From positions 4,280 through 68,279 of the IMG/VR virus record IMGVR_UViG_3300031718_000005: a stretch of DNA of 64,000 bases. One strand, given 5' to 3'. The notes under the pieces were generated by a model, which saw nothing but the letters and a program-made list of their open reading frames with translations, did not search any database and was not told the origin of the DNA. The position numbers were made by a program, and so were the translations under genes. This DNA is from a virus. Of this stretch, positions 47-62,104 are shown piece by piece (positions within the stretch are counted from its first letter, which is position 1; the number at the start of each line of letters is the position of its first letter).

Positions 47-118
47 ATGAGCGCCAATCAACTCATGGACAAGCTTCTGCCAAACCGCTCCAGTTATTTC
101 GCGAGCCGCACCAAATGA
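47..118 (+). CDS. tiny ORF (23 aa) wedged between an ORF entering from the left edge and terL
   Basis: The ATG at 47 overlaps the TGA (48-50) of the upstream ORF. Its own TGA (116-118) overlaps the terL ATG (115-117). Below the ORF-track cutoff, read by eye. Confidence 0.25.
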   Translation: MSANQLMDKLLPNRSSYFASRTK

Positions 119-2604
119 CCAAGTACCCACGCGATCCAGCTTCCGGCATTCCCATTCCACCGGAGCCGCAGAAACGCCGCACGCCAAAGGAGCAGCAAAG
201 CACCAGAGCCTTCACTGAACTCATTCGCCTGCACAAAATCTGGATGGATCAGCAGGCTATACTTGGAGCCGAAGAATCGCTTAAAAAGTTCCTCAAGTTG
301 GCGTGGCCCGCGATTGAGCCTGGTTACGAGTATGTGGATGGATGGCATATCGACGCCATCTGCGATCACGTTCAGGCGGTGATGGACGGAGAGATACGGA
401 AACTGCTTATCAACGTCCCGCCGCGTTCAACCAAATCCAGCATCGTCAGCGTTGCTCTGCCCGCATGGAGATGGATAAAAGTTCCCGAGTATCGTTGGCT
501 GTGCTGTTCCTACGATCTAAAATTAGCGAAGGACGATTCCCGCCGGTGTCGTGACCTCATCCGTTCAGACTGGTTCCAGAAAAACTGGGGGGACAAATTC
601 CAGATCGACCGCAACCAGGATGAGAAGCAATTCTTCGCCAATGACCATAAGGGCTGGCGTATCGCAGCCTCAACCGATACAGGTTCTACTGGACGCGGCG
701 GCGACTGCATTATTTACGACGACTTGAACGACGTCAATCAGATGAACTTCGATGCCTACATCGATAATGTAATCAATTTCCATGAACGGGTAACCCCAAG
801 CCGGTTGAACGACCAAAAAACAGGCACGCGCATATCTGTGCAGCAGAGGTCGCACGAACGAGACATCACCGGCCATATTCTCTCCAAGGAGTTCGGCTGG
901 GTACACCTAAACATCCCGATGGAGTACGAGGGGAAACGACCGGCCACAGTACTTGGCTGGACCGATCCCCGCGAAACCGAGGGCGAGTTAATGTGTCCGG
1001 CAAGAACCGGCCCAACCGAAGTTGCCGATTTGAAAGTGTCCCTAGGGCCAATTGCTTACAATGGTCAGTACCAACAACGTCCTTCTCCTGGTGAAGGAGC
1101 GAAGTTCAAACGGGAATGGTGGAGATTCTACAACCCTCCCGGATTCAAGCAAACCGACGAAGCTGGGAACACGCTGCCGGTTCGCCTATCTCTTCCCGAT
1201 GGAAAGATTTTAGAACGGATGCCGGTTGAATGCCCTCCGGCCTTTGAGCAAGTCTTGCAAGCCTGGGACATGGCGTTCAAAGAAGAGAAGGACTCCAACA
1301 ACGTCTGCGGGCAAGCATGGGGGCGCGTAGGGTCGAATGTGTTTCTGTTGTCGCGGGACTGCTCCCGCAAGGACTTTCCCAAAACGATAGCAGCAGTGCG
1401 AAAGATGAGCCAGGAGTTTCCGTGTCCCGAAAAACTGGTGGAAGACAAGGCCAACGGACCGGCTGTCTTGCAAACCTTAAAGAACGAGATTCCGGGGCTA
1501 ATCCCTTCACCGATAATTGGGGGCCTTGAATCGCTGGCAACCGCATCAACTGGTTATGTGGAGGCTGGAAATGTCTATTTGCCCAATCCCGCCGTGGCTC
1601 CTTGGGTCCTCGACTATATCGAACAGTTCGCGGTCTTCCCGCGAGGCAAGACTGATGATGATGTTGCGGCGCAGTCTCACGCTCTAAGGAGGCTGTTTGA
1701 TTCGGTCGCCAATTCCTCCGTCCCAGAGTTTCGGGTTGTTCCTCGACTCAATGAGCCAAAATCAGCTTGCCACGTCGAAGAAAGTTCTGCCTTACTAGCA
1801 AGTCTCGCTCCGCACTGGCGCAGATGGGTATCGCTATCGCCTGGAGCCGCGCTGTGGTTGTGCGAGACACCCACTCGCTCTATTAGGGTTTATCGTGAAC
1901 TGGATCTCGACAAGATTGACGCGCATGAAACCGGGCGGAGAATCGCCCAAGCCTCGATCCAGGACGTAACCGCTTTTACGCGGGCGATTCATGAAACCGC
2001 GAGATGGCACTGCGACATCTTCATGGAGAAGGAATGCTTCGCGGCCATCGAACCAATCGGGTGTTACGCGGAACTGGTAGCCGAAGGCATTCGCACTTAT
2101 GAGCCGGATCAAGGCGACTTATATCAACGTCAGGCCACAAAAGAAGCGTTGGGGCGGATTGCCTTTTCTCCCGAGCTAATCGAAGTAGAGGACGCGGCCT
2201 GGGACCGGTTGAGAGACTTACTACGCTTCGCGCCCGCCGATTTCCAAACTCTCGATTACGACCGCACCGAGGCGATGAATCTCTACCGCAGAGATCCAGA
2301 AGCCTGGAGAAGCTACATGGCCTCCTGCTATGGACAGGTGCATGGCGAATGGCCCAAGATCAAGCTGTCTAGCGATTGCAAATGGACGCTTGCCGCCATG
2401 GGAGCCGCTAACCGCAATGACAAAGCGGTAGTCAATCCGTTCATGCAGGCATTGCTGATCGGAATCACCATTCCCGATTCAGTCGCACAACCCAAACTGC
2501 GAGAAATACCGTGGGTGGGCAACGGAGCGAAAGGCAGGCTGCCGAATCGCGGGGGAGCGCATCGCACTCGGCAAGGGATACGCCGATTCGGCATGGTGGG
2601 ATGA
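115..2604 (+). CDS. terL: terminase large subunit with about 300 aa C-terminal extension
   Basis: 829 aa. Walker A-like PPRSTKSS, Walker B-like GGDCIIYDDLND and a QQRSHERD coupling motif. RNaseH-like nuclease part (AWDMAF, VEDKANG, DDDVAAQSHAL). First gene of the morphogenesis block. Confidence 0.9.
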   Translation: MTKYPRDPASGIPIPPEPQKRRTPKEQQSTRAFTELIRLHKIWMDQQAILGAEESLKKFLKLAWPAIEPGYEYVDGWHIDAICDHVQAVMDGEIRKLLINVPPRSTKSSIVSVALPAWRWIKVPEYRWLCCSYDLKLAKDDSRRCRDLIRSDWFQKNWGDKFQIDRNQDEKQFFANDHKGWRIAASTDTGSTGRGGDCIIYDDLNDVNQMNFDAYIDNVINFHERVTPSRLNDQKTGTRISVQQRSHERDITGHILSKEFGWVHLNIPMEYEGKRPATVLGWTDPRETEGELMCPARTGPTEVADLKVSLGPIAYNGQYQQRPSPGEGAKFKREWWRFYNPPGFKQTDEAGNTLPVRLSLPDGKILERMPVECPPAFEQVLQAWDMAFKEEKDSNNVCGQAWGRVGSNVFLLSRDCSRKDFPKTIAAVRKMSQEFPCPEKLVEDKANGPAVLQTLKNEIPGLIPSPIIGGLESLATASTGYVEAGNVYLPNPAVAPWVLDYIEQFAVFPRGKTDDDVAAQSHALRRLFDSVANSSVPEFRVVPRLNEPKSACHVEESSALLASLAPHWRRWVSLSPGAALWLCETPTRSIRVYRELDLDKIDAHETGRRIAQASIQDVTAFTRAIHETARWHCDIFMEKECFAAIEPIGCYAELVAEGIRTYEPDQGDLYQRQATKEALGRIAFSPELIEVEDAAWDRLRDLLRFAPADFQTLDYDRTEAMNLYRRDPEAWRSYMASCYGQVHGEWPKIKLSSDCKWTLAAMGAANRNDKAVVNPFMQALLIGITIPDSVAQPKLREIPWVGNGAKGRLPNRGGAHRTRQGIRRFGMVG

Positions 2605-3997: not shown

Positions 3998-6460
3998 ATG
4001 GAAGCTATAGCCCCAGCCCCTCCCGCACCATCGGTGGACGAATTAATCGCTCTGCTCGAAAATCCCGTCAAGGACGTGATGCGGACGGAAATGTCGGACG
4101 AAAACGACCCCGACCGCGTATGGATACTGCGCAAGAACTTCAACAACTACATCTACTCCAGGGGCCTTCAGAATTACGCTTCGCTGCTGACCCAATCGAT
4201 TCTGGCTCTGACCTCGCAGGGCGGTCCAGGTGTGGATTTAGGAGCGGACGAGGAGCCGACCGGACTCTACGACTACACCCAAAAGCACTATACCGGGTTC
4301 AAGCGCAAGTTTGTCGCTGTGATCGGAAACCGGCTGGCGAACATGATCGCCGTGCCGAACAATTCCAACGACGAGGAAGGAGTTCGGGCAACACGCTCGG
4401 CAAACCCGGCTGCGCTTTACCTGAGACAGAAGTGCGATCTGGAATCGAAGTTTCTGGATCAGGCGGCACGCATCTTCGACTACGGGACAACGTTCTGGCA
4501 TCTCGATTGGGTTGAGGATGGCGATAAGTACGGTTATCGCGACGAACCACAGCATCAAATTCAGCAGCAGCCCCTCGGAAACGCACGGTTCGATTGTCCG
4601 AACTGCGGAGCTAGTGTCCCGTCAGACGGTAACCCGCAAACTGCACCACCAGTTTGTCCGCAGTGCGGGACACAACTAGGCCCTCAGCACTTCGTTCCGC
4701 CTACGATGGTTCCGACTCCCGTACAGACCGGAACGAAGAAAGTCCCCAAGGGAGCGCTGGAGATCGACCTGAAAGACGCAAACGAAATCTCCGTGCCACT
4801 AGATTCGACTTGTGTTGACGATTGCGATTGGCTCCGATGGGACCGCGAAGAACCAAAAGGGAAATTGCTTCGCAAGTACGGCAGAGACAAATTGAGCGAC
4901 TTTGATGGTAACGATCAAGGGCATGATACGGTGTCATCGCAACTCGGAGAATTCATCCGATCTGCCATGGCCTCGCCGATTGGCTTAGTTCGGCCTAATC
5001 GTCCTAACCGATGGACATGTTCTGACATATGGTGGACGCCCAACCAATATGAATTGGTGCCAGACAAGACGGCCCGCGAAACGCTTAAATCCCAATTTTC
5101 AGATGGGGCCAGATTTTGTTTCGTCAAGGGAAAGTTGGTTGACCTGAAGGCTGAAAAACTTCAGGACCGCTGGCAGGAAACCAAACCTGAACCGGCCCCG
5201 CGAATCATGACCGACGCCTTAGGGGACGAATGGACGGAAACGACCGACATCGCCAACAACGTCATGAACCAGTGCGAGCAGAACGTGGCCCGGAGCAATT
5301 TGCCACTGTTCATGAACAGCAGCAAGGTCGATTCCGACGCTTGGGCTAATAGGAACACGCTTCCTGGCGATGCGTTCTTTATCCTGCCACGTGCTGGTCG
5401 TGCGCTATCGGACGAAATTCATCAACCGCAGTCTTTGATGTTCTCCGAACAAGCCCCGCAATTTCGCGCCGGTGTAATTGAGGACGCGAAGTCCAATACC
5501 GGCCTGGTAGACGCTATCTGGGGCGGTGGTGAACCTGATCCCACGGCGCGTCAGACGTTGCTCAAAACCAATCAGGCTTTGATGCAGTTGGGAACGCACT
5601 GGACGCAGATCCGTAAGTCTCTTGAGAAACTGATGCTGAAGGCGTGTAAGTTGCTTTCCCAGTACTCCGAGGGAGTCATCGAGTTTTCCAAGAAAAACCA
5701 GTTTGGCAGATTTGACACGTTGAGTTTCACCACGGAAGACCTGAGAAGTGATTCCTATCATTTCGAAGCCGACGAAGCCATTCCGGTTAATTGGGGGCAG
5801 CAACGCGATCAGTTGATGTGGCTGTTAGGACAAATCGGCGAGAATCCGCAATTGGCGACAATGATGGGCTTGACCGATCCGTTCAACGTGTTCGAGTTCA
5901 AGCAACTGATCGGTATTCCAGGGATGCACACCCCGCAATTCGACGCCCGCGAGAAGTGCATGGATGTGATCGCCACTCTAATTTCCGACGTATCCGCTGG
6001 GCCAAATGGCGAGCGTCCCAAGCAACAAATGCAACCCGGACCTCCCGGCCCAGATGGTCAACCCGGCCCTCCGCAACCAACCGTACAGCCAGATTGGGAA
6101 GACGATCACGCTTTCTTCTCGATGGCGGTGAAAGCGTACCTGTTGGACAATTCCGACTTGAAAACCAGCAGCCCTGACGCTTACGCCAATATTCAGGCTT
6201 ATGGGCAGGCGCAAGACGCCATGGCCAATCCGCCGCAACCTCCAGCGGAGCCTAAGAAGACCTTCTCGGTGTCACTAAAGGGTTCCGATGTTGGTGTTCA
6301 AGCCGTCCAGGACATGCTGACTAAGGAAGGTATGCTAGACCCGAACACCCCAGTAGAATCGGATGCCGACAAGAAGTTAGCGCAGACAGATCAGATGAAC
6401 CAACAGCAATTGGCCGCGCAAACGGCTATGCCTGCCCCTAACGGTGCAGCGATTCAGTAG
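3998..6460 (+). CDS. portal protein (by size and position)
   Basis: 820 aa, the first large ORF after terL and followed by scaffold-like and capsid-like genes. Contains a CPNCG...CPQCG zinc-ribbon insert. No portal motif verifiable by eye. Confidence 0.7.
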   Translation: MEAIAPAPPAPSVDELIALLENPVKDVMRTEMSDENDPDRVWILRKNFNNYIYSRGLQNYASLLTQSILALTSQGGPGVDLGADEEPTGLYDYTQKHYTGFKRKFVAVIGNRLANMIAVPNNSNDEEGVRATRSANPAALYLRQKCDLESKFLDQAARIFDYGTTFWHLDWVEDGDKYGYRDEPQHQIQQQPLGNARFDCPNCGASVPSDGNPQTAPPVCPQCGTQLGPQHFVPPTMVPTPVQTGTKKVPKGALEIDLKDANEISVPLDSTCVDDCDWLRWDREEPKGKLLRKYGRDKLSDFDGNDQGHDTVSSQLGEFIRSAMASPIGLVRPNRPNRWTCSDIWWTPNQYELVPDKTARETLKSQFSDGARFCFVKGKLVDLKAEKLQDRWQETKPEPAPRIMTDALGDEWTETTDIANNVMNQCEQNVARSNLPLFMNSSKVDSDAWANRNTLPGDAFFILPRAGRALSDEIHQPQSLMFSEQAPQFRAGVIEDAKSNTGLVDAIWGGGEPDPTARQTLLKTNQALMQLGTHWTQIRKSLEKLMLKACKLLSQYSEGVIEFSKKNQFGRFDTLSFTTEDLRSDSYHFEADEAIPVNWGQQRDQLMWLLGQIGENPQLATMMGLTDPFNVFEFKQLIGIPGMHTPQFDAREKCMDVIATLISDVSAGPNGERPKQQMQPGPPGPDGQPGPPQPTVQPDWEDDHAFFSMAVKAYLLDNSDLKTSSPDAYANIQAYGQAQDAMANPPQPPAEPKKTFSVSLKGSDVGVQAVQDMLTKEGMLDPNTPVESDADKKLAQTDQMNQQQLAAQTAMPAPNGAAIQ

Positions 6461-7814: not shown

Positions 7815-9176
7815 ATGGCTGTAGGCCAATTTTCTTCACAAGTTGCGGCAACGCAGCTAGAGCAAGTACGCAAACAGTTTGCGAAACTGCTCGCCATGAA
7901 CGAATCCAAGTTCATGAAAATGTTTGTGTCCGCTTCCGAGAAACACCAAGTCTCGGCATGGACGGCGGGCACTGTCGGTTCCGGCGGCGTCGTCGCATGG
8001 CGCATTCCGGTACTCGTATCCATCGGCGGCGATTATCAGGCAGTCTCTTTGGACGCTGGCGACCTCGGTGCCGGTTCGATGATGAACACCAACTTCATGA
8101 CCGTTGGTTATTTCGCCAACGACTTGGCGTACGCTATTCCCGCACTGGCGGCAATGGCTACCAAGAACGCCACCCAGGCCATGAACAACACCCTGAAGTT
8201 CTCGTTGGGCAACGCCTTCAAGGAAATGGCGCTGTACAACGAAATAGGGTTCTTCCAGGATTCGACCGGAGTCTTGGCAACCGCCAATGGAACAGGTTCT
8301 CCGACCGTTGCGGCAGGCAAGGTAACGTACAACCTAGAACCTTCCAACTTCAGTTTCAATCGCCTTCGTTCCACCGGAGCACTGGTAGACGTTTACGATT
8401 CGACCAACACCCAGCGTCAATTGAGTTCCCGTATCCTGAGCACTAACCTGTCGCTCACGGCTCCCACGGTAACTCTCACCGTAACCGGCACCCCCACGGT
8501 CGCCAACACCGATCAAATCGCCTTCGCCGGAATGGGCGGAACAATCGGCACCTCGACCATCGCCGCAGGTTCCTGGAGAAACGGCCTCTACACCTTCTCC
8601 ACCACCAGCTCGAGTGGCAACCTGCTCGGCCTTCCTTACTCCTCGGTCAGCGAACTGATCTGCTGCCAGGTGAACGGAAACAACGGCTTCTACACTCCCT
8701 CCATCGTCTTCAGCGGTGCGGCCCAATTACGGCAACGGCGCGACGAAGAAGCGCTCTCAGGCGTAGTCGGAGTAGGAAGCTTCGCACAGCGCGTCTCCTG
8801 GTACCTCCAGGGACTCACCATCGCCAACCAACACCTTCGTCCAGGTGAAGCGGCAAGCTCGCTCGATCTGGCAGGCCAGGGTCTCAAGTACACCGACACC
8901 TGGGAAGCAGGCGACGTAACTCATCACGTCTCGCGCTACGCCAACAAATCCAGAGTAGACTGGGTCATCCCTAAGAACTACGGCTGGGTCCAACTCGACG
9001 ACATCGACTTCTTCAAAACCCCCGAGGGCCAGAAGATTTTCGTGGGCCGCGTTGCTTCCACCGGGAATCCGGCGGCGGGGTTCCAATTCTACATTTTGAA
9101 CAGTAGAAATTTGTACTGTGTAGATCCCGGAAGTAACGTGAACTACACGGCGCTAGCAATTCCTTCAGGCCAATAG
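7815..9176 (+). CDS. major capsid protein (by position)
   Basis: 453 aa, GGAG-type RBS, follows the scaffold-like gene and is followed by a long hairpin. Confidence 0.65.
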   Translation: MAVGQFSSQVAATQLEQVRKQFAKLLAMNESKFMKMFVSASEKHQVSAWTAGTVGSGGVVAWRIPVLVSIGGDYQAVSLDAGDLGAGSMMNTNFMTVGYFANDLAYAIPALAAMATKNATQAMNNTLKFSLGNAFKEMALYNEIGFFQDSTGVLATANGTGSPTVAAGKVTYNLEPSNFSFNRLRSTGALVDVYDSTNTQRQLSSRILSTNLSLTAPTVTLTVTGTPTVANTDQIAFAGMGGTIGTSTIAAGSWRNGLYTFSTTSSSGNLLGLPYSSVSELICCQVNGNNGFYTPSIVFSGAAQLRQRRDEEALSGVVGVGSFAQRVSWYLQGLTIANQHLRPGEAASSLDLAGQGLKYTDTWEAGDVTHHVSRYANKSRVDWVIPKNYGWVQLDDIDFFKTPEGQKIFVGRVASTGNPAAGFQFYILNSRNLYCVDPGSNVNYTALAIPSGQ

Positions 9177-9204: not shown

Positions 9205-9259
9205 CTTGACTGCGTTGGTCCACAAGGCAAGAATAGCATTGTGCCCCAGCGCAGTCAAG
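9205..9259. terminator. long imperfect hairpin between convergent capsid gene and HNH gene
   Basis: CTTGACTGCG (9205-9214) pairs with CGCAGTCAAG (9250-9259), with an inner CACAA/TTGTG pairing. No clean T-tract. Confidence 0.4.
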
Positions 9260-37433: not shown

Positions 37434-37772
37434 ATGGGAAAAATATCAGACGTAGAATCCCTACGCCGGGAAATTGCCATTTTGAAGGAAATGGCCCAGG
37501 TCAAGTGGGACAGCCACTTCCGGGAGCACAGTATTGAACGTGAGGCCGTTCAACTTGCCCATGCGGATATGGACCGGCGGCTGAACGAAATGAACAGGCT
37601 GAAAGAACAAATGGCGGCTTCGGATGCGAAGTACATCCCGCGTCCCGAATACGACGCAAACCATAAGACTTTGGAGGTTCGGGTTGACTCCTTGGCCAAG
37701 CTGGTTTACATCGGTCTAGGCGGCGTGATGGTGATCTCGGGATTTTTTAGTTGGTTTTTCAGTAAGCATTGA
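37434..37772 (+). CDS. coiled-coil protein with C-terminal membrane anchor
   Basis: 112 aa with C-terminal LVYIGLGGVMVISGFFSWFF. Confidence 0.55.
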   Translation: MGKISDVESLRREIAILKEMAQVKWDSHFREHSIEREAVQLAHADMDRRLNEMNRLKEQMAASDAKYIPRPEYDANHKTLEVRVDSLAKLVYIGLGGVMVISGFFSWFFSKH

Positions 37773-37806
37773 AATATAAGGGTTTTAGGTTACACTTGAA
37801 CTTCAA

Positions 37807-38118
37807 ATGAACAACACGCCGCCAACGGTCGAGGATTTTCCGTGGCGAATCGTTGCATTCCTGGGTAGCCTCTTTGCGTTCACGCCGTTGATACGCTACG
37901 TAGCTGGCTACCTCCGCGAAGCCAGAATGAAAGAATTGCGGGAATGGTTTCGCACCGAAGACGGTAAGGCTTTTATGGTGCAGTTGTTTTTGGACACGCT
38001 TGAGGACGAGGACCGTTACATGCGTGACTACCTAGAGGACTGGTGGTGTAACCGCCACAACCGAGACAGGAGCAGACCAAGTGAAGAACCTCGCAAATTG
38101 GATCGACCGGGCAATTGA
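37807..38118 (+). CDS. N-terminally anchored charged protein
   Basis: 103 aa. WRIVAFLGSLFAFTPLIRYVAGYL followed by an Arg/Glu/Asp-rich tail. Confidence 0.5.
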   Translation: MNNTPPTVEDFPWRIVAFLGSLFAFTPLIRYVAGYLREARMKELREWFRTEDGKAFMVQLFLDTLEDEDRYMRDYLEDWWCNRHNRDRSRPSEEPRKLDRPGN

Positions 38119-40542: not shown

Positions 40543-41009
40543 GGTTTCTCACTTCTTCGGAACCGCTGTGGACCCTATTGAAAGAACAGATTGGAGGCTC
40601 TGTCCTTCCCCCTCTAGATCCCAACGGCTCCGAAGAAGCGCCCTCGTGAGAAGGCCGGGGACTCCAGGGTTCGTGGATCAGGAGTCCTAAAAGGCTGGTC
40701 ATCCCGAGAACCGACCATCCCCATTACCACAGGGACTAAGGCTTATCAATTTTGAAAGGAGAGCGGTCCCCGTTCCCCCGAGATTACCCGCTCTCCCCAA
40801 TTGCTAACTTTCGGGATCTTCGCCCGTGCAGGGATCTTGGCCCAAGCCAGCAAGACTACTTGCTGGGCGGTAGAAAGGAGCCGGTGCGAAAGCACCGCGC
40901 GGCATTACCCGCACACGCCCAGCAAGCTGGATGGAGGCTGACAGCTTTAAAGTCTGCTATGGATCGAAAGGCTACGCATCCGACAGCCCCCATAAACCGC
41001 ACAAGTTCG
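40543..41009. ncRNA. ORF-free hairpin-dense spacer, candidate structured RNA
   Basis: Contains several perfect 6-9 bp stems, a GAAA-capped hairpin and a 13 of 14 bp long-range stem. The only ORF is Pro/Arg-rich and implausible. Confidence 0.3.
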
Positions 41010-41531
41010 TTACGTCGGACTTCCCTCTCTCCGTTGCAGTTCGGCGATTAGCTCGTCACTGGTGAACTTCGCGAGTTGTTCCTGGATCGACTGCGTCTCC
41101 TGCTGTGGCGGAAAGAGCGGCTCCGGCATTGCTCCACTGTCCGCTTGGGTTACTTCTCCGGTCAGGGCGTTGATCCAGGAACCGTCCGGTTGTAGAAGCT
41201 CCGCCTCTACCTTGCCTTCAAAAGGGCCATCGAGACCCTGGAAGTCCTGGTGATCTGCCAACGAGCGACCGAGCAGATACTTCTCCATGCCGTCGATGTC
41301 GCTGGTCTGTATTGATGCTTGGGGCGCGTTTCCAGGATCGTCTTTGCGCCGGGGAAGATAGTGCCCCGCCGCCACGTCCACAGCGTCACGATCTCGTGAC
41401 ACGACGCGGAAAAAGTCTGTTATGTTCGCCTGGAACTTCACGAGCGCAGTGCGGAAACCGTCCGCGTCAATCGAACGAGCATCTAGTTGTTTCAGCGCTG
41501 CCAGTTTCATTTGTTTCACATCATCAGCCAT
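41010..41531 (-). CDS. hypothetical protein
   Basis: 173 aa acidic protein. Confidence 0.55.
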   Translation of the reverse strand: MADDVKQMKLAALKQLDARSIDADGFRTALVKFQANITDFFRVVSRDRDAVDVAAGHYLPRRKDDPGNAPQASIQTSDIDGMEKYLLGRSLADHQDFQGLDGPFEGKVEAELLQPDGSWINALTGEVTQADSGAMPEPLFPPQQETQSIQEQLAKFTSDELIAELQRREGSPT

Positions 41532-41589
41532 TTAGTTCTCCTTCTGGTTTAGTAGTGCGTTTCTGTGTTGGCCCCCGCATGGAAGCATA

Positions 41590-41853
41590 TTACCGTAATT
41601 TGTTCTCCATCTCCCGCATGCGCTTGTGTTTGAGGTTGGAGACGTATTTCTCTAAAGCATTGCGCAGTTCGTGTGTATCTGACTTGTAGAAGAATTTGAC
41701 GCCAACACGGATAACATACCTGGACTGCACTGGGTTCATCGGCATGTAGCCAGCGTAGTCCATGAAATACTTCTCCAACTCTTTACCGTCCATTGCAAGA
41801 ACGTCATCAACCGACTTACCAGCGATCACGGCAGCAACCCCCACCATCTCCAC
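41590..41853 (-). CDS. hypothetical protein
   Basis: 87 aa. Confidence 0.5.
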   Translation of the reverse strand: MEMVGVAAVIAGKSVDDVLAMDGKELEKYFMDYAGYMPMNPVQSRYVIRVGVKFFYKSDTHELRNALEKYVSNLKHKRMREMENKLR

Positions 41854-42317
41854 TTCACCACTGGCGTCTGAGGCATTAACGCCGCAACCTGCCCCTGAAG
41901 ATTCACTATCGCGAGCTTCTGTATCTCGATCTGCCGGTCGCGTTCGACGATCTCGTAGCTCAGTTCGTTGATGCGCTGGCAGTAGATTTTCTCTACTTCG
42001 GCGAAGTAGTTGCCCTGCGTCTCCGGGCCGTGCTCGTTGAAGCGCTTCACGAAGGCTTGGCGGTCGCCTACGTTCAGGCTCTCTAGGTGCGCTAGTTCCA
42101 TGCGACAGAGGGCGCTGCGGACTTCGGTGTCGTCGGGTGTCATGCTATTTCCCCTTTCCTCGCGAATCGCTGAGCGGAGCCAGCTTGCAGCCACCTGATT
42201 GAGAATGCTTTGCAGTTCCATCGCCGTAAGATCGAAGACTTGCACTATCTGCACAACGCTCTCAGCTAGCTTCAGGTGCGCTTCGCTGACTTGACGCTGT
42301 CTCTCGTGCATCTTCAT
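41826..42317 (-). CDS. coiled-coil protein
   Basis: 163 aa, helical, ATGA-coupled to the upstream gene. Confidence 0.55.
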   Translation of the reverse strand: MKMHERQRQVSEAHLKLAESVVQIVQVFDLTAMELQSILNQVAASWLRSAIREERGNSMTPDDTEVRSALCRMELAHLESLNVGDRQAFVKRFNEHGPETQGNYFAEVEKIYCQRINELSYEIVERDRQIEIQKLAIVNLQGQVAALMPQTPVVKWRWWGLLP

Positions 42318-42685
42318 TTGCCCTTCTTCCTCTCTGCCAAAGCTGGCCTCAGATACACGCGTTCGAGTGAGTTGGCGATCTCGCTAAATGGTACTCCTGA
42401 ATCATTGAGGCTTGCGGCGGTATCGGGATATTCCAGTAGGGGATTTGTTTTTCTGATCCCAAGCCAAATCTGCACTGGACCGGGCAACGTGGATGACTCA
42501 CGAAAATCATCAATAATAAATACCCCGGCTCTCCAGCGACCCAGTCCTGTCGTTCGCCGGAAGACCTCGCACGCCACGCCTAAGCAGCAAAACTTGCGGT
42601 CATCGCGTAGCTGGTTTTGTGCCTGCCTGAACTCGCCGCTACGGAGCGCTTTGAGCCATAGCTTCATGTGGGATATGTTAATCAT
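42314..42685 (-). CDS. hypothetical protein (WLKALRSG...CCLGV type)
   Basis: 123 aa. The motif pattern is common in phage early genes. Function unknown. Confidence 0.6.
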   Translation of the reverse strand: MINISHMKLWLKALRSGEFRQAQNQLRDDRKFCCLGVACEVFRRTTGLGRWRAGVFIIDDFRESSTLPGPVQIWLGIRKTNPLLEYPDTAASLNDSGVPFSEIANSLERVYLRPALAERKKGK

Positions 42686-42894
42686 TTGGCCTTTTTCCGT
42701 CTCGCGTCCTTCTCCAGCCTCACCAGCGCACGGCGGAGGAACTGGCGGAGCTTGGGGCTATTCGTGCCGCCACCCCACCAATTGGCGGGAGACGGGGAAT
42801 GCCAAGTCAAGTACATGCCTCTAATACCCGAATTATCTTCCGGCAACAAGCGGAGATGGCTACCGTTCTCGGATACGAACTCTAGGTCCTTCAT
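42682..42894 (-). CDS. hypothetical protein
   Basis: 70 aa, ATGA-coupled on both sides. Confidence 0.5.
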   Translation of the reverse strand: MKDLEFVSENGSHLRLLPEDNSGIRGMYLTWHSPSPANWWGGGTNSPKLRQFLRRALVRLEKDARRKKAK

Positions 42895-43244
42895 TTGCCA
42901 TTCTCCCGCTTGGGCCGCTTCAAGAACTGCGACCCTTTCGCTCTTTCCCTCAGGCGCTTGACGGCTTCCTCTGCTAACTCCTGCGCCATGTGGTGCCCAT
43001 TGCCGTGAATCAACCCAGCGCCTTCAGCACGCTCAAACCATAATGCGGCCCGGTATACGTCATTACCCAAGTCTTCTTCAATAGACGCGAGAGTGAGAAC
43101 CTTCTTCTTCCGAAGCTCCGGCTTTGGCAAAAACGCCCGCAGCGCCTGCTCGGTAATCGCGTGCATCTTTAAGCCGGTATGAGCGCTGTATTCCTTTACC
43201 GCATCCCTGATCTCGTCAGAAACGAGCATGTTCAATCCAGGCAT
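42891..43244 (-). CDS. ribbon-helix-helix-like regulator, first gene of leftward early operon
   Basis: Start moved to the ATG at 43244. MLVSDEIRDAVKEYSAHTGLKMHAITEQALRAFL fits a beta-alpha-alpha RHH pattern. Confidence 0.5.
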   Translation of the reverse strand: MPGLNMLVSDEIRDAVKEYSAHTGLKMHAITEQALRAFLPKPELRKKKVLTLASIEEDLGNDVYRAALWFERAEGAGLIHGNGHHMAQELAEEAVKRLRERAKGSQFLKRPKRENGK

Positions 43245-43250
43245 GAGAAG

Positions 43251-43279
43251 AGGATAACACAGGGAAAACTGGATTGCAA
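43251..43279 (-). promoter_or_regulatory. sigma70-like promoter, leftward
   Basis: TTGCAA, 17 nt, TATCCT, then 6 nt to the ATG at 43244. Confidence 0.45.
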
Positions 43280-43309
43280 CAATAATTTTCAACTGACAAC
43301 AAAAATGTC

Positions 43310-43338
43310 TTGACTTCGCCCTGTGGCTGGTTTACGAT
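43310..43338 (+). promoter_or_regulatory. sigma70-like promoter, rightward
   Basis: TTGACT, 17 nt, TACGAT, then 6 nt to the ATG at 43345. Confidence 0.5.
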
Positions 43339-43344
43339 TGGTTC

Positions 43345-43500
43345 ATGAGCATCGACCGCAACCTCGAAAGCAGCATGGGGAAAGTGCCAACATCCTCCGA
43401 ACTAGCGGCTGAGCGGCGTATTTGGGGCGCAGAGCCGGTGGAGCAAAGCGCTGGCGACCCATTCGATGAAACGGATTGGTATGAGGAGGAATCGGAATGA
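43345..43500 (+). CDS. 51-aa acidic ORF, first cistron of rightward early operon
   Basis: Read by eye: MSIDRNLESSMGKVPTSSELAAERRIWGAEPVEQSAGDPFDETDWYEEESE. Its TGA overlaps the ATG at 43497. Confidence 0.4.
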   Translation: MSIDRNLESSMGKVPTSSELAAERRIWGAEPVEQSAGDPFDETDWYEEESE

Positions 43501-43727
43501 GCGTCTGGTACGAAACCTGCATTGAGCAGAAGGGTGAGATCCGCGATGTAATCGTGCGCGGCAATCTAGAAGGGGCGAAACGAGCTATAGACCAACTGAA
43601 AGTTGATTGGCCGAAATTCGACATGATCTTTGTCCGGCAACACGGCAAGCGTAAACGCGGCGAAACCTCTCAGGACAGTTTTCGCGTCCTCCAGAAACTT
43701 ACGATTAAACCCGAGGTAGCAGCATGA
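43497..43727 (+). CDS. hypothetical protein
   Basis: 76 aa with GAGGAGG RBS. Confidence 0.55.
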   Translation: MSVWYETCIEQKGEIRDVIVRGNLEGAKRAIDQLKVDWPKFDMIFVRQHGKRKRGETSQDSFRVLQKLTIKPEVAA

Positions 43728-43954
43728 GCCACTACCCAGTAGGTTGCAGCGCTTCGGACGTAGACCGCTCCTCGAATGGCGATGCGGAATATGTTGACGA
43801 ACTCGACGAGCTTTGCGTATTGGACTGCGGACACTCAGGAACGATTCGCAACGCTGAAGAAGCGGCAGGCCAGTTGATCTGTGAACCTTGTTTCATTGCA
43901 CGGAAAGCGTTCATCACCGAGTTGATGGGCGGGTTGAGGAGCTTGGCGCAATGA
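43724..43954 (+). CDS. hypothetical Cys-containing protein
   Basis: 76 aa, ATGA-coupled. Confidence 0.55.
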   Translation: MSHYPVGCSASDVDRSSNGDAEYVDELDELCVLDCGHSGTIRNAEEAAGQLICEPCFIARKAFITELMGGLRSLAQ

Positions 43955-44145
43955 TGCACCCTATTGAGATTCGCGAGCAACACGCCAATTTACTAGCAGA
44001 GATTCAGGAATTGCTTGGATTCTGCCAAGATTTAATGCTGGTGGTTACCGGCGGTGCACCACAGGAACAACTTAACAGTGTGCGTGGGAATATGATTCAC
44101 TGTTGCGAACGCATCGGCAATATTGCCGCCAGGATCGGAAGGTGA
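43951..44145 (+). CDS. hypothetical protein
   Basis: 64 aa from an internal ATG, ATGA-coupled to the upstream stop. Confidence 0.5.
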   Translation: MMHPIEIREQHANLLAEIQELLGFCQDLMLVVTGGAPQEQLNSVRGNMIHCCERIGNIAARIGR

Positions 44146-44164
44146 TGGGCGGGTTGAGGAATCT

Positions 44165-44782
44165 ATGCCAGTAAAATCTACAATTAACGCTCTTGATCCA
44201 GTCTCGAACGATGCCGAAGTTGACATCCTCGCAGGCCAACCATACACCGTGTGCGCGACAGTCGTCGGCACTGCGCCGATTCTATTTCACCGTTGGAGCG
44301 TGGAAGGCGTGGCCGAGAAAGCCAAGGCTGCGAAGGGCAGTAAGGCCAAGAAGGAAGACAATCTCGAAAGCTACGTCTACCGTGATCAGCGCGGGCACAT
44401 AGCGATTCCGGCTGAGTACTTTCGTATGGCGATTATCACGGCTGCAAAGTTCAAACAAGACCCGCGTTCGCCACGGAAATCAGCAATGGACCTTTTCAAG
44501 GCTGGGATCGCAATTGGCGAAGAGTACTGCTCTTTGGGCAAGAGCGAATGGGATTATGTTGACCAACGGCGTGTGGCGGTCCAGCGCAACGGTATTACGC
44601 GCTGTCGGCCAGCAATGCAGACCGGCTGGAAAACTGACGTGATCCTGTCGGTTCTCTTACCGGAATACATCAACGTTGAACTTCTCAATGAAGTCATGCA
44701 GAGTGCGGGTCGGCTGATCGGCGTGGGCGATTTTCGACCGTCATACGGGCGCTTTCAGATCATTGGTTTCTCGGTAGTGTGA
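44165..44782 (+). CDS. hypothetical protein
   Basis: 205 aa from the ATG behind GAGGA. No motif recognised. Confidence 0.6.
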   Translation: MPVKSTINALDPVSNDAEVDILAGQPYTVCATVVGTAPILFHRWSVEGVAEKAKAAKGSKAKKEDNLESYVYRDQRGHIAIPAEYFRMAIITAAKFKQDPRSPRKSAMDLFKAGIAIGEEYCSLGKSEWDYVDQRRVAVQRNGITRCRPAMQTGWKTDVILSVLLPEYINVELLNEVMQSAGRLIGVGDFRPSYGRFQIIGFSVV

Positions 44783-45090
44783 GCCGAGGCTAGGCGAGAT
44801 CTGGCGAGGTATGGCGTGGATGGGTCAGGCGTGGTTTCGGAAAGGCGTGACACGGTATGGTTAGGCTGGGCCCGGTGAGGCGCGGTAGTGTTTGGTGTGG
44901 CGCGTTCGGGCTGGGCACGGTTCCCTATGGTGTAGTTTGGAGCGGTTAGCCGAGGCGAGGCGGTGTCAGGTTCGGCAGGATGCGGTATGGCGTGGCACGC
45001 TCAGGAGCGGTATGGTGCGTTCAGACGGGCCATGGTCTGGTTCAGCATGGTCGGGACAGGTCAGGTCAGCTAAGGCATGGATTATTAAAA
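44772..45090 (+). repeat. G+T-rich, C-poor array of same-strand CGGTA(T/G)(G/T)G octamers
   Basis: CGGTATGG at 44853, 44983 and 45008. CGGTAGTG at 44772 and 44883. AGGTATGG at 44807. The 12-mer GGTATGGCGTGG occurs at 44808 and 44984. AGCCGAGGC-AGGCG occurs at 44782 and 44947. Confidence 0.6.
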
Positions 45091-45291
45091 ATGGAAAACA
45101 TCACAGAAGAACAGGTTTTGAAGTGGTTCGAGACTGCCGAATTACAAGACGCCATCGTCATCAACGCTACGGCTGCTGGCGTTATTCGGATGAGGCAGCA
45201 GCAGAACGGGCGGAAACGCCGCAGTGACGCGGGCCAGAAGCGGAAGGCTGAGGAGCCGGTGTTGAATTTCGATCCAAAGGACAGGCCATAA
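45091..45291 (+). CDS. hypothetical protein
   Basis: 66 aa from an internal ATG of ORF 44980..45291, with a basic C-terminus. Confidence 0.5.
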   Translation: MENITEEQVLKWFETAELQDAIVINATAAGVIRMRQQQNGRKRRSDAGQKRKAEEPVLNFDPKDRP

Positions 45292-46182
45292 ATGTTTGAC
45301 ATCATCAATCGATATACGCAAGCTGTGCTTTACCACAGCGAGACTGCCACTACCGTCAAAGAAGCTGTCGTGGCGGCTGTCGCTACTAAAGCCAACCTGC
45401 GCGATGCCGACCTGGGCGGTGCCTACCTGCGCGGTGCCAACCTGCGCGATGCCGACCTGGGCGGTGCCAACCTGGGCGGTGCCTACCTGCGCGGTGCCAA
45501 CCTGCGCGATGCCGACCTGGGCGATGCCGACCTGGGCGGTGCCGACCTGCGCGATGCCAACCTGGGCGGTGCCAACCTGGGCGGTGCCGACCTGCGCGGT
45601 GCCAACCTGCGCGGTGCCAACCTGCGCGATGCCAACCTGGGCGGTGCCAACCTGGGCGGTGCCTACCTGCGCGGTGCCGACCTGCGCGATGCCAACCTGG
45701 GCGGTGCCGACCTGGGCGGTGCCTACCTGCGCGGTGCCAACCTGCGCGATGCCGACCTGGGCGGTGCCAACCTGCGCGATGCCAACCTGGGCGGTGCCGA
45801 CCTGGGCGAATTCAGGACCGATCTAATTGCTGAGATTCTGAAACTGCCTGATGAGCTTGAAAATCTTCGCGATCAGTTGATTGCCGGTAAAATCAGCGGC
45901 TCGACCTATACCGGCGAGTGTGCTTGTTTGGCTGGGACAATCGCTAAGCATCGTGGGCTCACTACAATCTCAAGCGGAGACGTAATGTCGGACAATGCCG
46001 TAAAGTTCCAGGTTGACAGCTCTTCGCCTCGTGAAAAATGGTTCCTGAATGTCCAGAAGGGCGACACGCCGGAAACAAGCCAGATCGCCAAGATCACGCT
46101 CGGCTGGATTGAGGAGGCGATTGCGATACGCGATCACATCCGAGCAGTACCGGCGAAGCTGCTGGAGGAGATAAAGCGATGA
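45292..46182 (+). CDS. pentapeptide-repeat protein with distinct C-terminal domain
   Basis: 296 aa. 28 consecutive A(N/D/Y)L(R/G)(G/D) pentapeptides, then a roughly 120-aa Cys-containing domain. Confidence 0.85.
   Translation: MFDIINRYTQAVLYHSETATTVKEAVVAAVATKANLRDADLGGAYLRGANLRDADLGGANLGGAYLRGANLRDADLGDADLGGADLRDANLGGANLGGADLRGANLRGANLRDANLGGANLGGAYLRGADLRDANLGGADLGGAYLRGANLRDADLGGANLRDANLGGADLGEFRTDLIAEILKLPDELENLRDQLIAGKISGSTYTGECACLAGTIAKHRGLTTISSGDVMSDNAVKFQVDSSSPREKWFLNVQKGDTPETSQIAKITLGWIEEAIAIRDHIRAVPAKLLEEIKR
45391..45810 (+). repeat. 28 tandem 15-bp units
   Basis: Every unit reads GCC-(A/G/T)AC-CTG-(C/G)GC-G(G/A)(T/A). Only four positions vary. Confidence 0.95.
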
Positions 46183-46765: not shown

Positions 46766-47011
46766 TTGAGTTCATGGGAGGTTCTATTGGCTGAGCAATT
46801 GGTTGAGGATCGCATCGCGGCGGCGAGACTGGCTCGGGCGAGAGCTTTGGCGGTCTTGGTAAAGAACGATTGCATTCGGCTCTTGATCGGGTTGACCGAC
46901 GACGAATGGCAAAACATGGCGGTTCAGGCCAAGATCAACGCTCAGAAGCCGCCTAGCGAAGAGACGCGGCAGATGTTACTGGATATCGTGAAAGGGTGGA
47001 AGTGCGAATGA
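46766..47011 (+). CDS. hypothetical protein
   Basis: 81 aa with a non-ATG start. Its stop overlaps the erf ATG. Confidence 0.4.
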   Translation: MSSWEVLLAEQLVEDRIAAARLARARALAVLVKNDCIRLLIGLTDDEWQNMAVQAKINAQKPPSEETRQMLLDIVKGWKCE

Positions 47012-47784
47012 GCGAACAGCAAAACCTTGTGGTGCAGGACGAGCCGAAGGCAGTAGTTCCGATCACCATCTACGAGATATTCGCGCAACTAGCCCGCGAT
47101 CCTAACGTTGACCCAGTTCGCATTCAACAGTTGATGGAACTGCAAGAGCGGGCTGAGGCACGGCAAGCCGAGAAGGAGTTCATTGCCGCCATGAACCGCT
47201 TGCAGCCGAAACTGCCACGGATCACAAAACAGGGCAAGATCGCATTTGAGTCTCAGCGTACTGGCCAATCGCAGAACACGCCCTATGCTCGGTTCGAGGA
47301 CATCGACGCCAAGATCCGACCATTGCTGCATGACGAGGGGTTCTCAATCAGTTTCGGCACGGCTGCGCTAGAGAAGGGCGGCATTCTCATTACAGCCACA
47401 TTGAGCCACGCGGCGGGGCACAGTCGCACAGAGTCCATGCCGTTGCCGTTTGACACCAGCGGCAGCAAGAACAGCATACAGGCCGTGGGAAGCACAATGG
47501 CGTACGGGAAACGGTATTTAATTTGCGCCATGCTGAACATCATCACCGTGGGTGAAGATGACGACGGCAACGCTGTCTCGTTCATCGACCAACAGCAACT
47601 CAACAGCATCATGGACCTGATTATCGCTTCCGAGATGGACGAAACTTCTCAGGCCGCGTTTCGCAAGCTGATGAACGTGGAGCGGATTGAGGATATCCGC
47701 AAATCTAACTATCCGAAGGCCATGTCCGCGCTGCACGCCAAGTTCAAGAAGTGGCGGCAAGAACATCCCGAGGTTTCTGTGTGA
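47008..47784 (+). CDS. erf: Erf-family single-strand annealing protein
   Basis: TPYARFEDIDAKIRPLLHDEGFSISF and AVGSTMAYGKRYLICAMLNI fit the ERF family pattern. Paired with an exonuclease. Confidence 0.75.
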   Translation: MSEQQNLVVQDEPKAVVPITIYEIFAQLARDPNVDPVRIQQLMELQERAEARQAEKEFIAAMNRLQPKLPRITKQGKIAFESQRTGQSQNTPYARFEDIDAKIRPLLHDEGFSISFGTAALEKGGILITATLSHAAGHSRTESMPLPFDTSGSKNSIQAVGSTMAYGKRYLICAMLNIITVGEDDDGNAVSFIDQQQLNSIMDLIIASEMDETSQAAFRKLMNVERIEDIRKSNYPKAMSALHAKFKKWRQEHPEVSV

Positions 47785-48494
47785 AGTATTTACCCTACGA
47801 ACAGAGAAGTCGCGAGTGGTTCGCTGCCAGGTTGGGAATTCCTTGCTCCTCGGAGTTCCACAAGATTATCACTCCGAAGACTATGAAGGTATCCAGCCAG
47901 GCACCGGCCTACGCTCATCGTCTGCTCGCAGAGTGGGTGAGCGGAGCGCAGTTAGACGCTTACGAATCCCCACACATGATGCGGGGTCAAGAGCTTGAAG
48001 CGGATGCGATAGCGGCATACGAACTTCTAACCGAAACCGAAACCACTCCGGGTAACTTCGTCACCACCGATGACGGAATGTTGGGTTGCTCGCCGGACAG
48101 GTTGATCGGCGAGGTAGGCGACCTCGAATTGAAATGCCCAGCTTTGCAAACTCAGATCGGCTTCGCCATCGACGGCTTAGACGATGAGTACAAGTGCCAG
48201 GTGCAGGGTCGCATGCTGATCCACGGCCGAGAATTCTGCGACCTGTTCTCTTACCATCCGCTCGTATCCATCCCGCCGATTCGCCTACATCGCGACGAGA
48301 AGTTTATCGGTGCTATGCGCCCAGTGCTCGATACATTCGTTGAGCAACTACTGAAGGCACGGGAACTACTAGAGCAGCGCTACGGTCCATTCACGCGCAA
48401 CGAACCGAAACCAGCAGCGGCCGACATGCTAGGGGTGAGCGACAAGGATTTGCAGGATATTCTCAAGGCCAGGGAGATTGTAGAAAAATGGTGA
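47781..48494 (+). CDS. YqaJ-like (lambda Exo-type) recombination exonuclease
   Basis: RSREWFAARLGIPCSSEFHKI, GCSPDRL and DLELKCP give a PD-(D/E)xK signature. The GTG at 47781 overlaps the erf TGA. Confidence 0.75.
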   Translation: MKYLPYEQRSREWFAARLGIPCSSEFHKIITPKTMKVSSQAPAYAHRLLAEWVSGAQLDAYESPHMMRGQELEADAIAAYELLTETETTPGNFVTTDDGMLGCSPDRLIGEVGDLELKCPALQTQIGFAIDGLDDEYKCQVQGRMLIHGREFCDLFSYHPLVSIPPIRLHRDEKFIGAMRPVLDTFVEQLLKARELLEQRYGPFTRNEPKPAAADMLGVSDKDLQDILKAREIVEKW

Positions 48495-53862: not shown

Positions 53863-53892
53863 TTGACTCCTGTTTTGTCTTAGGACTATAGT
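53863..53892 (+). promoter_or_regulatory. sigma70-like promoter with flanking TAGGAC direct repeats
   Basis: TTGACT, 18 nt, TATAGT, then 5 nt to the ATG at 53898. TAGGAC occurs at 53881 and 53892. Confidence 0.45.
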
Positions 53893-53897
53893 AGGAC

Positions 53898-54062
53898 ATG
53901 GCAGGAGCAAACAATCCAGAGATTCACGTGTACATGACGCCAGCGCTTTATAAGCGGGTTAAGGCGGCGGCGAAAGAGGACCGGAGAAGCCTAACCACAT
54001 TCATAGTTATGGCCCTGGAAGAAAAGTTGGCGCGAGTGCCGAAAGGTAAGCAAGCGGCATGA
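53898..54062 (+). CDS. 54-aa ribbon-helix-helix (CopG/Arc-like) protein
   Basis: Read by eye: MAGANNPEIHVYMTPALYKRVKAAAKEDRRSLTTFIVMALEEKLARV.... ATGA-coupled to the next gene. Confidence 0.5.
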   Translation: MAGANNPEIHVYMTPALYKRVKAAAKEDRRSLTTFIVMALEEKLARVPKGKQAA

Positions 54063-54271
54063 TGAAGATCGAACCGGGCAAAGCAGTACGGATCACGATG
54101 AAGCGCGGCAAGATTAGCAAGAAGTTGCTGGTAACTGAAGTGGTTATTCCGTGCGTCGGCGACGAAGTGACTTGGGATGGCGATAGCTGGTTTATCACCA
54201 AGGCCAAGGAAGAGAAGATTCTAGCTGCGTTTCGGCCTGTAGGCAAGAAACTTAAGCAGGTATTCCCATAA
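54059..54271 (+). CDS. hypothetical protein
   Basis: 70 aa. Confidence 0.5.
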   Translation: MMKIEPGKAVRITMKRGKISKKLLVTEVVIPCVGDEVTWDGDSWFITKAKEEKILAAFRPVGKKLKQVFP

Positions 54272-61423: not shown

Positions 61424-62104
61424 ATGCCTCAACTCCTCAACCCTCGCCACGAAGCTTTCGCCCAGCATGTCGCTATGGGCCTACCATACACGCAAGCTGC
61501 TAAACGCGCTGGTTACGCCCAATCAGTTGCTCACAACTCCGGTTCCCGCGTTCACAAGAATCCCAAGGTGCAAGCCCGCATCGAGGAGCTTAAAGCTTCC
61601 AAGTTCGCTATCGTCACTGGCACTGGCATCCGTACCAACATGGCCCGTGTTATCGCCATTGAGGACCGCTGGGCGCGTATGCGTATGATTATAAAGGAAC
61701 GCGCTGAGCATCCGTCCATGGAAGACGTGCCAGGTGGGCGCTCAGGGTTGCTCTGTGTAGACTACAAGACAGTTGGCTCAGGCGACATGGCGGTAATCAA
61801 GACTGTCTACAAGCTTGATGCTGCATTACTTAAGGCGTTACTTGAGCATGAAGAGAGAGCAGCAATCGAGTTAGGACAGCAGTCGATCCGTCACGAGACA
61901 TTCTCCAGTTCCGTGAGCCTGCGAGCGAATGGCAAGGAACTACACGGCACGATCGCCAGCCATCTTGACCAGTTGACCGAGGAACAGCGCAAGCTAGCGG
62001 CGCAGTTGATGCCGGGGTTGAAAGTGATGCTGAATGGCCACGGTGAGCCTACTGATAACAGCGATGTGATCGAAGCATCTGTTGAAAGCAAAGAAGATGA
62101 GTAG
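61424..62104 (+). CDS. terS: terminase small subunit (Terminase_2/P27-like)
   Basis: N-terminus LNPRHEAFAQHVAMGLPYTQAAKRAGYAQSVAHNSGSRVHKNPKVQARIEEL. Confidence 0.75.
   Translation: MPQLLNPRHEAFAQHVAMGLPYTQAAKRAGYAQSVAHNSGSRVHKNPKVQARIEELKASKFAIVTGTGIRTNMARVIAIEDRWARMRMIIKERAEHPSMEDVPGGRSGLLCVDYKTVGSGDMAVIKTVYKLDAALLKALLEHEERAAIELGQQSIRHETFSSSVSLRANGKELHGTIASHLDQLTEEQRKLAAQLMPGLKVMLNGHGEPTDNSDVIEASVESKEDE

Follow-up and report, generated by a model that had tools for sequence, protein, structure and literature searches.

Predicted divergent promoters and leaderless first cistrons in a putative early control region of an uncharacterized tailed phage

The window analyzed here, 64,000 nt of viral DNA from IMG/VR record IMGVR_UViG_3300031718_000005 (positions 4,280 to 68,279 of that record), is most of an uncharacterized tailed-phage genome of ~68 kb. 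The only divergent gene junction of its early region is a 100-nt gap between two ATG codons, one at 43244 on the minus strand and the other at 43345 on the plus strand. This gap is probably an early control region, in which divergent promoters (termed here P_L and P_R) would start transcription on the first ATG of the leftward and rightward operons, both first cistrons would be leaderless, and the left product, a ribbon-helix-helix (RHH)-like protein of 117 aa, would be an autoregulator. Sequence geometry, conservation, coding signal and the constraint on synonymous sites were obtained directly from the DNA; from these, we infer transcription starts, leaderless translation, DNA binding and operators.

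In the proposed mechanism, two back-to-back host-type (sigma-70-like) promoters would share a 30-bp A+T-rich block, and each would start transcription on the A of its operon's first ATG. Such a start would leave the first cistron of each operon to be translated from a leaderless mRNA, while later cistrons would rely on Shine-Dalgarno (SD) sequences or ATGA-type coupling. The 117-aa protein would most likely repress P_L, and possibly P_R, through short repeats overlapping the -35 region. P_L, the leaderless start and the RHH-like gene together would make up a portable cassette common to at least two other phages.

Promoter geometry and conservation

The hexamers, spacings and ATGs of both promoters lie where the original prediction had placed them. 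P_L reads TTGCAA, 17 nt, TATCCT and 6 nt up to the ATG at 43244 on the minus strand; P_R, which a promoter scan also lists, reads TTGACT, 17 nt, TACGAT and 6 nt up to the ATG at 43345 on the plus strand (Table 1). A TG at 43259-43258, absent from the original prediction, precedes the TATCCT of P_L and makes this -10 element one of the extended type. The leftward protein has only two full-length relatives among 5.8 billion proteins, P0002 (80% identity) and P0003 (68% identity), whose loci in metagenomic phages (L006-L008 and L009) were compared with the window. Upstream of the RHH-like gene, L006 carries TTGCAT, 17 nt, TGcTATCGT, 6 nt and the ATG, and L009 carries TTGACA, 17 nt, TGcTATCGT, 6 nt and the ATG, the latter scoring 10/12 with the TG in the promoter scan. 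When the three loci are aligned, no change is seen in the -35 TTG, the TG, TATCnT or the start region; the spacers have otherwise diverged, with 5 of 17 positions conserved across the three loci, two of them being the TG. P_L emerges from this alignment as a well-supported predicted promoter, and the retention of its geometry in two independent homologous loci supports a leaderless start for the leftward gene. DNA homology between the window and L006 is confined to 42946-43283, which takes in the gene and, upstream of it, the promoter as far as -39; such a unit behaves like a portable cassette.

The modal start position of sigma-70 promoters is 7 nt after the -10, in a pyrimidine/purine context. 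In the gap, 6 nt separate each -10 hexamer from its ATG, which is preceded by C; the A of the ATG (+1) thus lies 7 nt after the -10, with a pyrimidine at -1 and a purine at +1. This arrangement supports the prediction that two divergent sigma-70-type promoters would place the modal start on the A of each first ATG. TATCCT and TACGAT both begin at -12 from the ATG, as do the corresponding boxes in L006 and L009, and a TANNNT box beginning ~12 nt upstream of the start codon is the accepted computational hallmark of bacterial leaderless genes (PMC3160421).

Shuffling the 100-nt gap with the ATGs fixed put a promoter in the correct place in 0.5% of trials for the right side and 1.4% for the left, and both were correctly placed with a probability of 4.5e-5. 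The window has 35 promoter-like sites, of which just three have, within 5-6 nt, an ATG that opens an open reading frame (ORF) of at least 50 aa, namely P_L, P_R and a third site at 53863. Pairing with the 3' end of 16S rRNA was +0.9 kcal/mol at the ATG of the RHH-like gene and -4.0 kcal/mol at that of the 51-aa ORF that opens the rightward operon, against a median of about -6 kcal/mol for internal genes. The SD sequences originally pointed out within the operons are present (AAGGAGG before 39276 and AAAGGAGG before 55253).

Several points weigh against leaderless first cistrons. The leaderless reading is a prediction from sequence, and the promoter type is assumed, no host having been inferred. 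The promoter comparison covers only three independent sequences. Across the window, a promoter followed within 5-8 nt by an ATG occurs 6 times, compared with 8.4 +/- 3.1 in shuffles, and a divergent pair of promoters with ATGs within 300 nt turned up in 12 of 200 shuffles; the bare pattern is therefore weak evidence. The lack of SD sequences at both ATGs, which had been set against their presence in internal genes, is real but not unique, as about a quarter of internal genes have equally weak pairing. The first 50 nt of the 5' ends are no more open than shuffles (folding z-scores of -0.9 to +1.2). On the right, no homologues of the 51-aa ORF were found, and it was left uncalled on a public 68,293-bp contig; on the left, the gene call on the same contig begins at a second ATG (43229) and yields 112 aa (P0001). 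Of the original proposal of two leaderless cistrons, the left one is sustained by the geometry kept in L006 and L009, and the right one, which has no homologues, is plausible on weaker grounds.

Rightward promoter and the 51-aa ORF

The first rightward ORF encodes 14 acidic and 4 basic residues, and no in-frame start lies 5' of 43345. Its reported coupling to the operon was confirmed, with its TGA overlapping the ATG at 43497 in an ATGA. The codon log-likelihood ratio of the ORF is +0.18 per codon, compared with a mean of 0.19 in true gene segments; a value this high is reached by only 1.2% of spurious ORFs, and the five other frames of the ORF are all negative. The ORF is called as a protein on a 68,279-bp contig. 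No function could be assigned from PHROGs, Pfam or NCBIfam to the proteins of 51, 70 and 76 aa. From these features, a leaderless start of the 51-aa ORF is plausible and somewhat favored, if less firmly than that of the leftward gene.

A less probable alternative, to which we nevertheless give some weight, is that P_R is real but its transcript carries a 152-nt untranslated leader, the 51-aa ORF being untranslated or begun at an ATG at 43375, and the 76-aa gene at 43497 being the first to be translated. Consistent with this, the 76-aa gene has a strong SD sequence (-12.3 kcal/mol), and the 51-aa ORF is both uncalled on the 68,293-bp contig and without homologues. Its gene-like codon score, however, is one that few spurious ORFs reach, and it is ATGA-coupled to the 76-aa gene. 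The ATG at 43375 also lacks an SD sequence (-1.0 kcal/mol), and the placement of the -10 before 43345 is the one that arises in only 0.5% of shuffles.

The hexamer TTGACT was considered as a phage-specific -35 element and rejected, with 27 copies and 27 expected. A divergent promoter is also seen opposite the RHH-like gene of L006 (5902-5942, minus strand), where TTGACA, 18 nt and TACAAT (11/12) end 8 nt before an ATG in frame with a called gene for a Cys-rich protein of 53 aa. That ATG would extend the Cys-rich gene by 24 in-frame codons with no stop; the called start has a GAGG of its own, and the two L006 -35 hexamers lie 8 bp apart. This promoter is an analogy to P_R, not a homologue. Together with the third site of the window (53863), it counts as a recurrence of the layout and in favor of the main reading.

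Start codon and 5' end of the leftward gene

The first 18 nt of the leftward gene, ATGCCTGGATTGAACATG, are invariant in the three loci, although synonymous sites elsewhere have diverged. Among codons for conserved residues, those identical in all three loci number 4/4 in codons 2-5, as opposed to 13/55 elsewhere (p=0.005), and 9/11 in codons 2-20, as opposed to 8/48 (p=8e-5). This invariance at synonymous sites implies that the 5' end is constrained at the nucleotide level beyond coding need. An exact search for the 18-mer returned one viral and 28 metagenome matches, none of which encodes an RHH-like homologue.

It is rather improbable that translation begins at the second ATG (43229), with the first 15 nt of the gene serving as a short conserved leader. 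The public 112-aa call (P0001) begins there, P0002 is called from the equivalent Met, and a noncoding element could likewise account for the invariance of the 18 nt. Yet the second ATG has no SD sequence (-3.1 kcal/mol), while the first is in frame, with MPGLN encoded at all three loci and P0003 called from it. A 5'-terminal AUG is, moreover, a strong initiation signal in itself. In the hhalign register, residues L4-S9 fall on the beta strand of CopG, and a start at M6 is disfavored because half of the RHH-like strand would be lost. The first ATG (43244) is thus supported as the one required for a full-length RHH-like beta strand.

A more speculative reading, on balance doubtful, joins the invariant 18 nt to the TTG/TGnTATCnT promoter as a self-contained portable cassette in which the initial transcribed and coding sequence would itself be a cis element. 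The +1 to +18 block could be an operator for the cassette's own RHH-like product or, alternatively, a specific enhancer of leaderless initiation. If true, the phage would use this cassette design at least three times (43244, 43345 and 53898) to express its first regulators before host-dependent signals were required.

A perfect 8-nt inverted repeat, CAATCCAG/CTGGATTG (43233-43240 and 43269-43276), brackets the core of P_L, with one arm in codons 2-4 and the other adjoining the -35. As a conserved element it was rejected; it was not seen upstream of the L006 or L009 genes and for that reason is probably due to chance.

Fold of the leftward protein

The N terminus of the leftward protein (residues 1-40) likely forms an RHH-like DNA-binding domain. 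AlphaFold2 monomer models (pLDDT, the model confidence, of ~65-75) have coil at residues 1-9, a helix at 10-23, a turn at G24-L25-K26 and a second helix at 27-38. The strand-helix-turn-helix pattern of RHH proteins can be recognized within ~40-45 residues, with alternating hydrophobic residues at L4, M6 and V8, and an hhalign comparison with CopG, at a probability of 10%, put the strand and both helices in register.

Family and structure searches count on the other side. The best Pfam match, Omega_Repress, is sub-threshold (E=0.008, 16.9 bits versus a cut-off of 33.3), and NCBIfam gave no match. With the N-terminal model, Foldseek returned only chains of Mycobacterium tuberculosis VapBC (5x3t), the top one being the VapB chain at E=6; this VapB antitoxin is an RHH protein. 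Foldseek on two low-confidence models found nothing significant, nor did sequence searches of the PDB. An exhaustive phmmer search of 1.84 billion representatives with the 48-aa N terminus found only P0002, apart from four apparently spurious matches to proteins of more than 1,000 aa. Overall, no significant match to a curated RHH profile or a solved RHH structure was obtained. The matches behind the earlier label "RHH-like" are all below threshold.

The C-terminal ~70 residues (WFERAEGAGLIHGNGHHMAQEL; 42894-43100, minus strand) are a conserved helical domain, found without the N-terminal domain in other phage proteins. Entries with this domain are L001, L002, L003 and L041 among the loci and P0004-P0008 among the proteins. 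It belongs to no Pfam, PHROG or NCBIfam family, and further scans of viral contigs brought up nothing beyond spurious hits and proteins that have the C-terminal domain by itself.

Operator candidates

The original prediction proposed that one repressor acts on both promoters through the heptamer CCCTGTG, which lies in inverted orientation in the two spacers, and its positions there are correct. The heptamer occurs 3 times in the 64 kb (7.6 expected), with two of these copies inside the gap, one per spacer; a shared inverted 7-mer with one arm in each spacer arises in only 2.3% of shuffles. The centers of the two copies are 61 bp apart, and a looping tetramer is conceivable. Even so, we think it improbable that the RHH-like protein binds the two copies and thereby shuts both promoters. 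The regions upstream of the genes in L006 and L009 lack CCCTGTG, although the strand presumed to read the DNA (PGLNM[L/T]VS) is nearly identical there. It adjoins the -10 in P_L, where it is partly just the TG of the extended -10, but the -35 in P_R. An inverted repeat of at least 7 nt anywhere in the gap is found in 18% of shuffles. Finally, it provides a single 7-bp site per promoter, and RHH repressors typically need at least two adjacent subsites. With the heptamer unconserved, differently placed and only mildly unusual, the proposal of one repressor acting through it on both promoters was not sustained.

A second candidate comes from the sequences upstream of the three RHH-like genes, where TGTTG/CAACA is the only 5-mer present at least twice in each (2, 3 and 3 copies); any 5-mer reaches this in 1.2% of shuffles. 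All three loci have a TGTTG copy at -37 that overlaps the -35, and in L006 a palindrome, CAACA-caat-TGTTG, spans both -35 hexamers. In the window, the two TTGTTG boxes overlap the -35 of P_L only and lie upstream of that of P_R, and the repeat is unremarkable within the window taken alone. Both candidates are weak, because CCCTGTG is unconserved and TTGTTG is unremarkable in the window and lies inside the A+T-rich block (43280-43309). That block is placed like an UP element for both promoters and may, we presume, act as one. From the three-way comparison, the TGTTG boxes appear a slightly better operator candidate than CCCTGTG; the invariant block from +1 to +18 may be added as a third.

It is very unlikely that the hexamer matches are coincidental and that transcription comes from elsewhere or through a promoter type of another polymerase or sigma factor: the window-wide count of the pattern is at chance level and no host could be inferred, but the joint placement probability is 4.5e-5, conservation falls exactly on functional promoter positions in three loci with diverged spacers, and no phage RNA polymerase was detected.

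Lysogeny switch or early control region

Back-to-back divergent promoters in one short intergenic region are present, as in a switch, but two antagonistic DNA-binding regulators are not found as the first genes: the right product is a 51-aa acidic protein in which no DNA-binding domain or family match was detected. Nearly all ORFs of at least 300 aa were scanned, with small ORFs covered less than exhaustively, and none matched an integrase, recombinase, partition protein or protelomerase. A further locus, L039, spans the part of the genome outside the window (~4-6 kb), and none of its genes that lie between TerS and TerL exceeds 154 aa. Prophage relatives were absent from 185,579 reference genomes. 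Since no integrase was found, nothing indicates a lysis/lysogeny switch, and the word "switch" in the original prediction is not supported in the lysogeny sense, as neither an integrase or partition gene, in the window or outside it, nor a DNA-binding signature in the right product was detected. A more fitting description is an early divergent control region, probably with an autoregulator that would work like P22 Arc or lambda P_RM-cI.

Genome context and other features

The leftward operon runs from 43244 to ~39000 and comprises ten small genes and a 467-nt gene-free stretch, and the rightward operon, from 43345 to ~56 kb, includes recombination and methylation genes. Beyond the features listed in Table 1, the window encodes primase-like and topoisomerase-like proteins and two DNA methyltransferases. 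Proteins recorded for ENA and Logan contigs of 68,293 and 67,794 bp, and for the 68,279-bp contig, match window proteins exactly. The INPHARED collection contains no phage close to this one, no known TerL is more than 37% identical to the one encoded here, and neither TerL nor the topoisomerase-like protein allowed a host to be inferred. In two scans of GTDB genomes (the 185,579 reference genomes), the protein family had no relative. A blastn search of 41500-45500 against known phages matched only the pentapeptide-repeat gene, whose DNA is similar to that of P22-like Salmonella phages and Edwardsiella phages; this gene is highly repetitive in DNA, and the 68,293-bp public contig ends within it.

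Table 1. Features of the window, in window coordinates
Feature	Position	Strand	Remarks
First leftward cistron, 117 aa	42891-43244	minus	ATG 43244 = proposed +1
5'-terminal 18 nt, ATGCCTGGATTGAACATG	43227-43244	minus	identical in all three loci
P_L extended -10, TGtTATCCT	43251-43259	minus	TG 43259-43258, hexamer 43256-43251
CCCTGTG in P_L spacer	43258-43264	minus (plus reads CACAGGG)	includes TG of extended -10
P_L -35, TTGCAA (4/6)	43274-43279	minus	TTG invariant in three homologous loci
Two TTGTTG boxes	43277-43282, 43297-43302	minus (plus CAACAA)	direct repeats 20 bp apart
A+T-rich 30-bp block	43280-43309		between the two -35 hexamers
P_R -35, TTGACT (5/6)	43310-43315	plus	
CCCTGTG in P_R spacer	43319-43325	plus	3 nt after -35
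P_R -10, TACGAT (4/6)	43333-43338	plus	6 nt before ATG 43345
First rightward cistron, 51 aa, acidic	43345-43500	plus	proposed leaderless
Second rightward cistron, 76 aa	43497-43727	plus	GAGGAGG SD, ATGA-coupled
TerL	115-2604		in the window
Structural genes	up to ~38 kb	plus	
Pentapeptide-repeat protein	45292-46182		
Erf	46996-47784		
YqaJ exonuclease	47751-48494		
TerS	61424-62104		in the window

The third promoter-like site with a nearby ATG (region 53863-54062, plus strand) reads TTGACT (53863-53868), 18 nt, TATAGT (53887-53892) and 5 nt up to the ATG at 53898, and direct repeats of TAGGAC (53881-53886 and 53892-53897) flank its -10. This ATG opens an RHH-like ORF of 54 aa (MAGANNPEIHVYMTPALYKRVKAAAKEDRRSLTTFIVMALEEKL...) that has sub-threshold matches to the HicB, NikA, RelB-like and YlcI families and a gene-like codon score. 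It has no SD sequence, no homologues were found for it, and it is ATGA-coupled to the ORF at 54059-54271.

The gene-free stretch in the leftward operon (40543-41009, minus strand) has a minimum free energy of -213.3 on the transcribed strand, compared with -177.4 +/- 6.6 in shuffles (z=-5.4), and z=-1.4 on the plus strand. It holds repeated GGGTAAT motifs and the third CCCTGTG of the window, and it has no match in Rfam, in known phages (blastn) or in L006. Folding predictions make it a candidate novel structured phage RNA.

Two other sites gave promoter-like matches. At 9205-9259, just past a gene ending at 9176, a 10-nt inverted repeat (CTTGACTGCG ... CGCAGTCAAG) with a 35-nt loop yields two overlapping face-to-face matches with TTGACT on both strands. 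At 37769-37809 (plus strand), TTGAAA, 16 nt and TACACT lie upstream of a 103-aa ORF, with 10 nt between TACACT and its ATG at 37807, and would give that ORF a leader of only ~3 nt.

Comparison with known systems

Leaderless first cistrons are under-annotated. Here, the public caller truncated the RHH-like gene and skipped the 51-aa ORF, the kind of annotation error that leaderless starts invite. The choice of start codon for small phage regulators should weigh a -10 box lying 6 nt upstream. The conserved promoter, the ATG at +1 and the invariant 18 nt would together offer a compact and testable leaderless cassette in uncultured phages.

The nearest precedent for the arrangement is the immB region of the telomere phage PY54, where rapid amplification of cDNA ends (RACE) mapped the divergent cI and cro genes each as a single leaderless mRNA beginning with AUG, with strong promoters directly upstream (PMC4488713). 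As in PY54, two divergently transcribed first genes would each be leaderless here, although in our case this is a prediction from the DNA. PY54 is temperate, and its CI and Cro are both DNA-binding regulators whose palindromic operators are defined. In the present phage, an RHH-like protein is the left product and an acidic 51-aa protein without homologues the right one, and no lysogeny genes were found.

In lambda, cI is the classic leaderless phage regulator, with the +1 of P_RM being the A of the cI AUG. The likeness extends to a regulator lying back to back with an early rightward promoter and, for lambda CI, to autoregulation. The differences are that lambda cro is expressed from P_R with a leader and an SD sequence, that CI is a helix-turn-helix protein, and that lambda has three shared operators and a lysogeny module.

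For one RHH protein acting on two promoters, the closest functional analogue is immI of P22. Its Arc and Mnt are small RHH repressors at compact divergent or overlapping promoters, and early Arc shuts off both. Apart from the fold pattern, nothing in the sequence of the leftward protein resembles Arc or Mnt, and no antirepressor gene was found here; to our knowledge, the P22 immI genes are not leaderless. Omega of pSM19035 (PF07764) and CopG of pMV158 bind short repeated subsites overlapping promoters, and the leftward protein differs from them in scoring below the curated cut-offs and in having the extra C-terminal domain of ~70 aa. The C proteins of restriction-modification systems, such as that of AhdI, are small autoregulatory DNA-binding proteins expressed from leaderless transcripts, with their gene heading an operon on DNA that has newly entered the cell (PMC2275141), but these are helix-turn-helix proteins in another genetic context.

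Because PY54 and lambda set the precedent, our analysis does not change what is known of phage switches. The arrangement is already known in other phages, and what is particular to this one is an RHH-like two-domain regulator, the portable cassette of promoter and gene, the nucleotide-invariant 5' end and the predicted reuse of the design within one phage.

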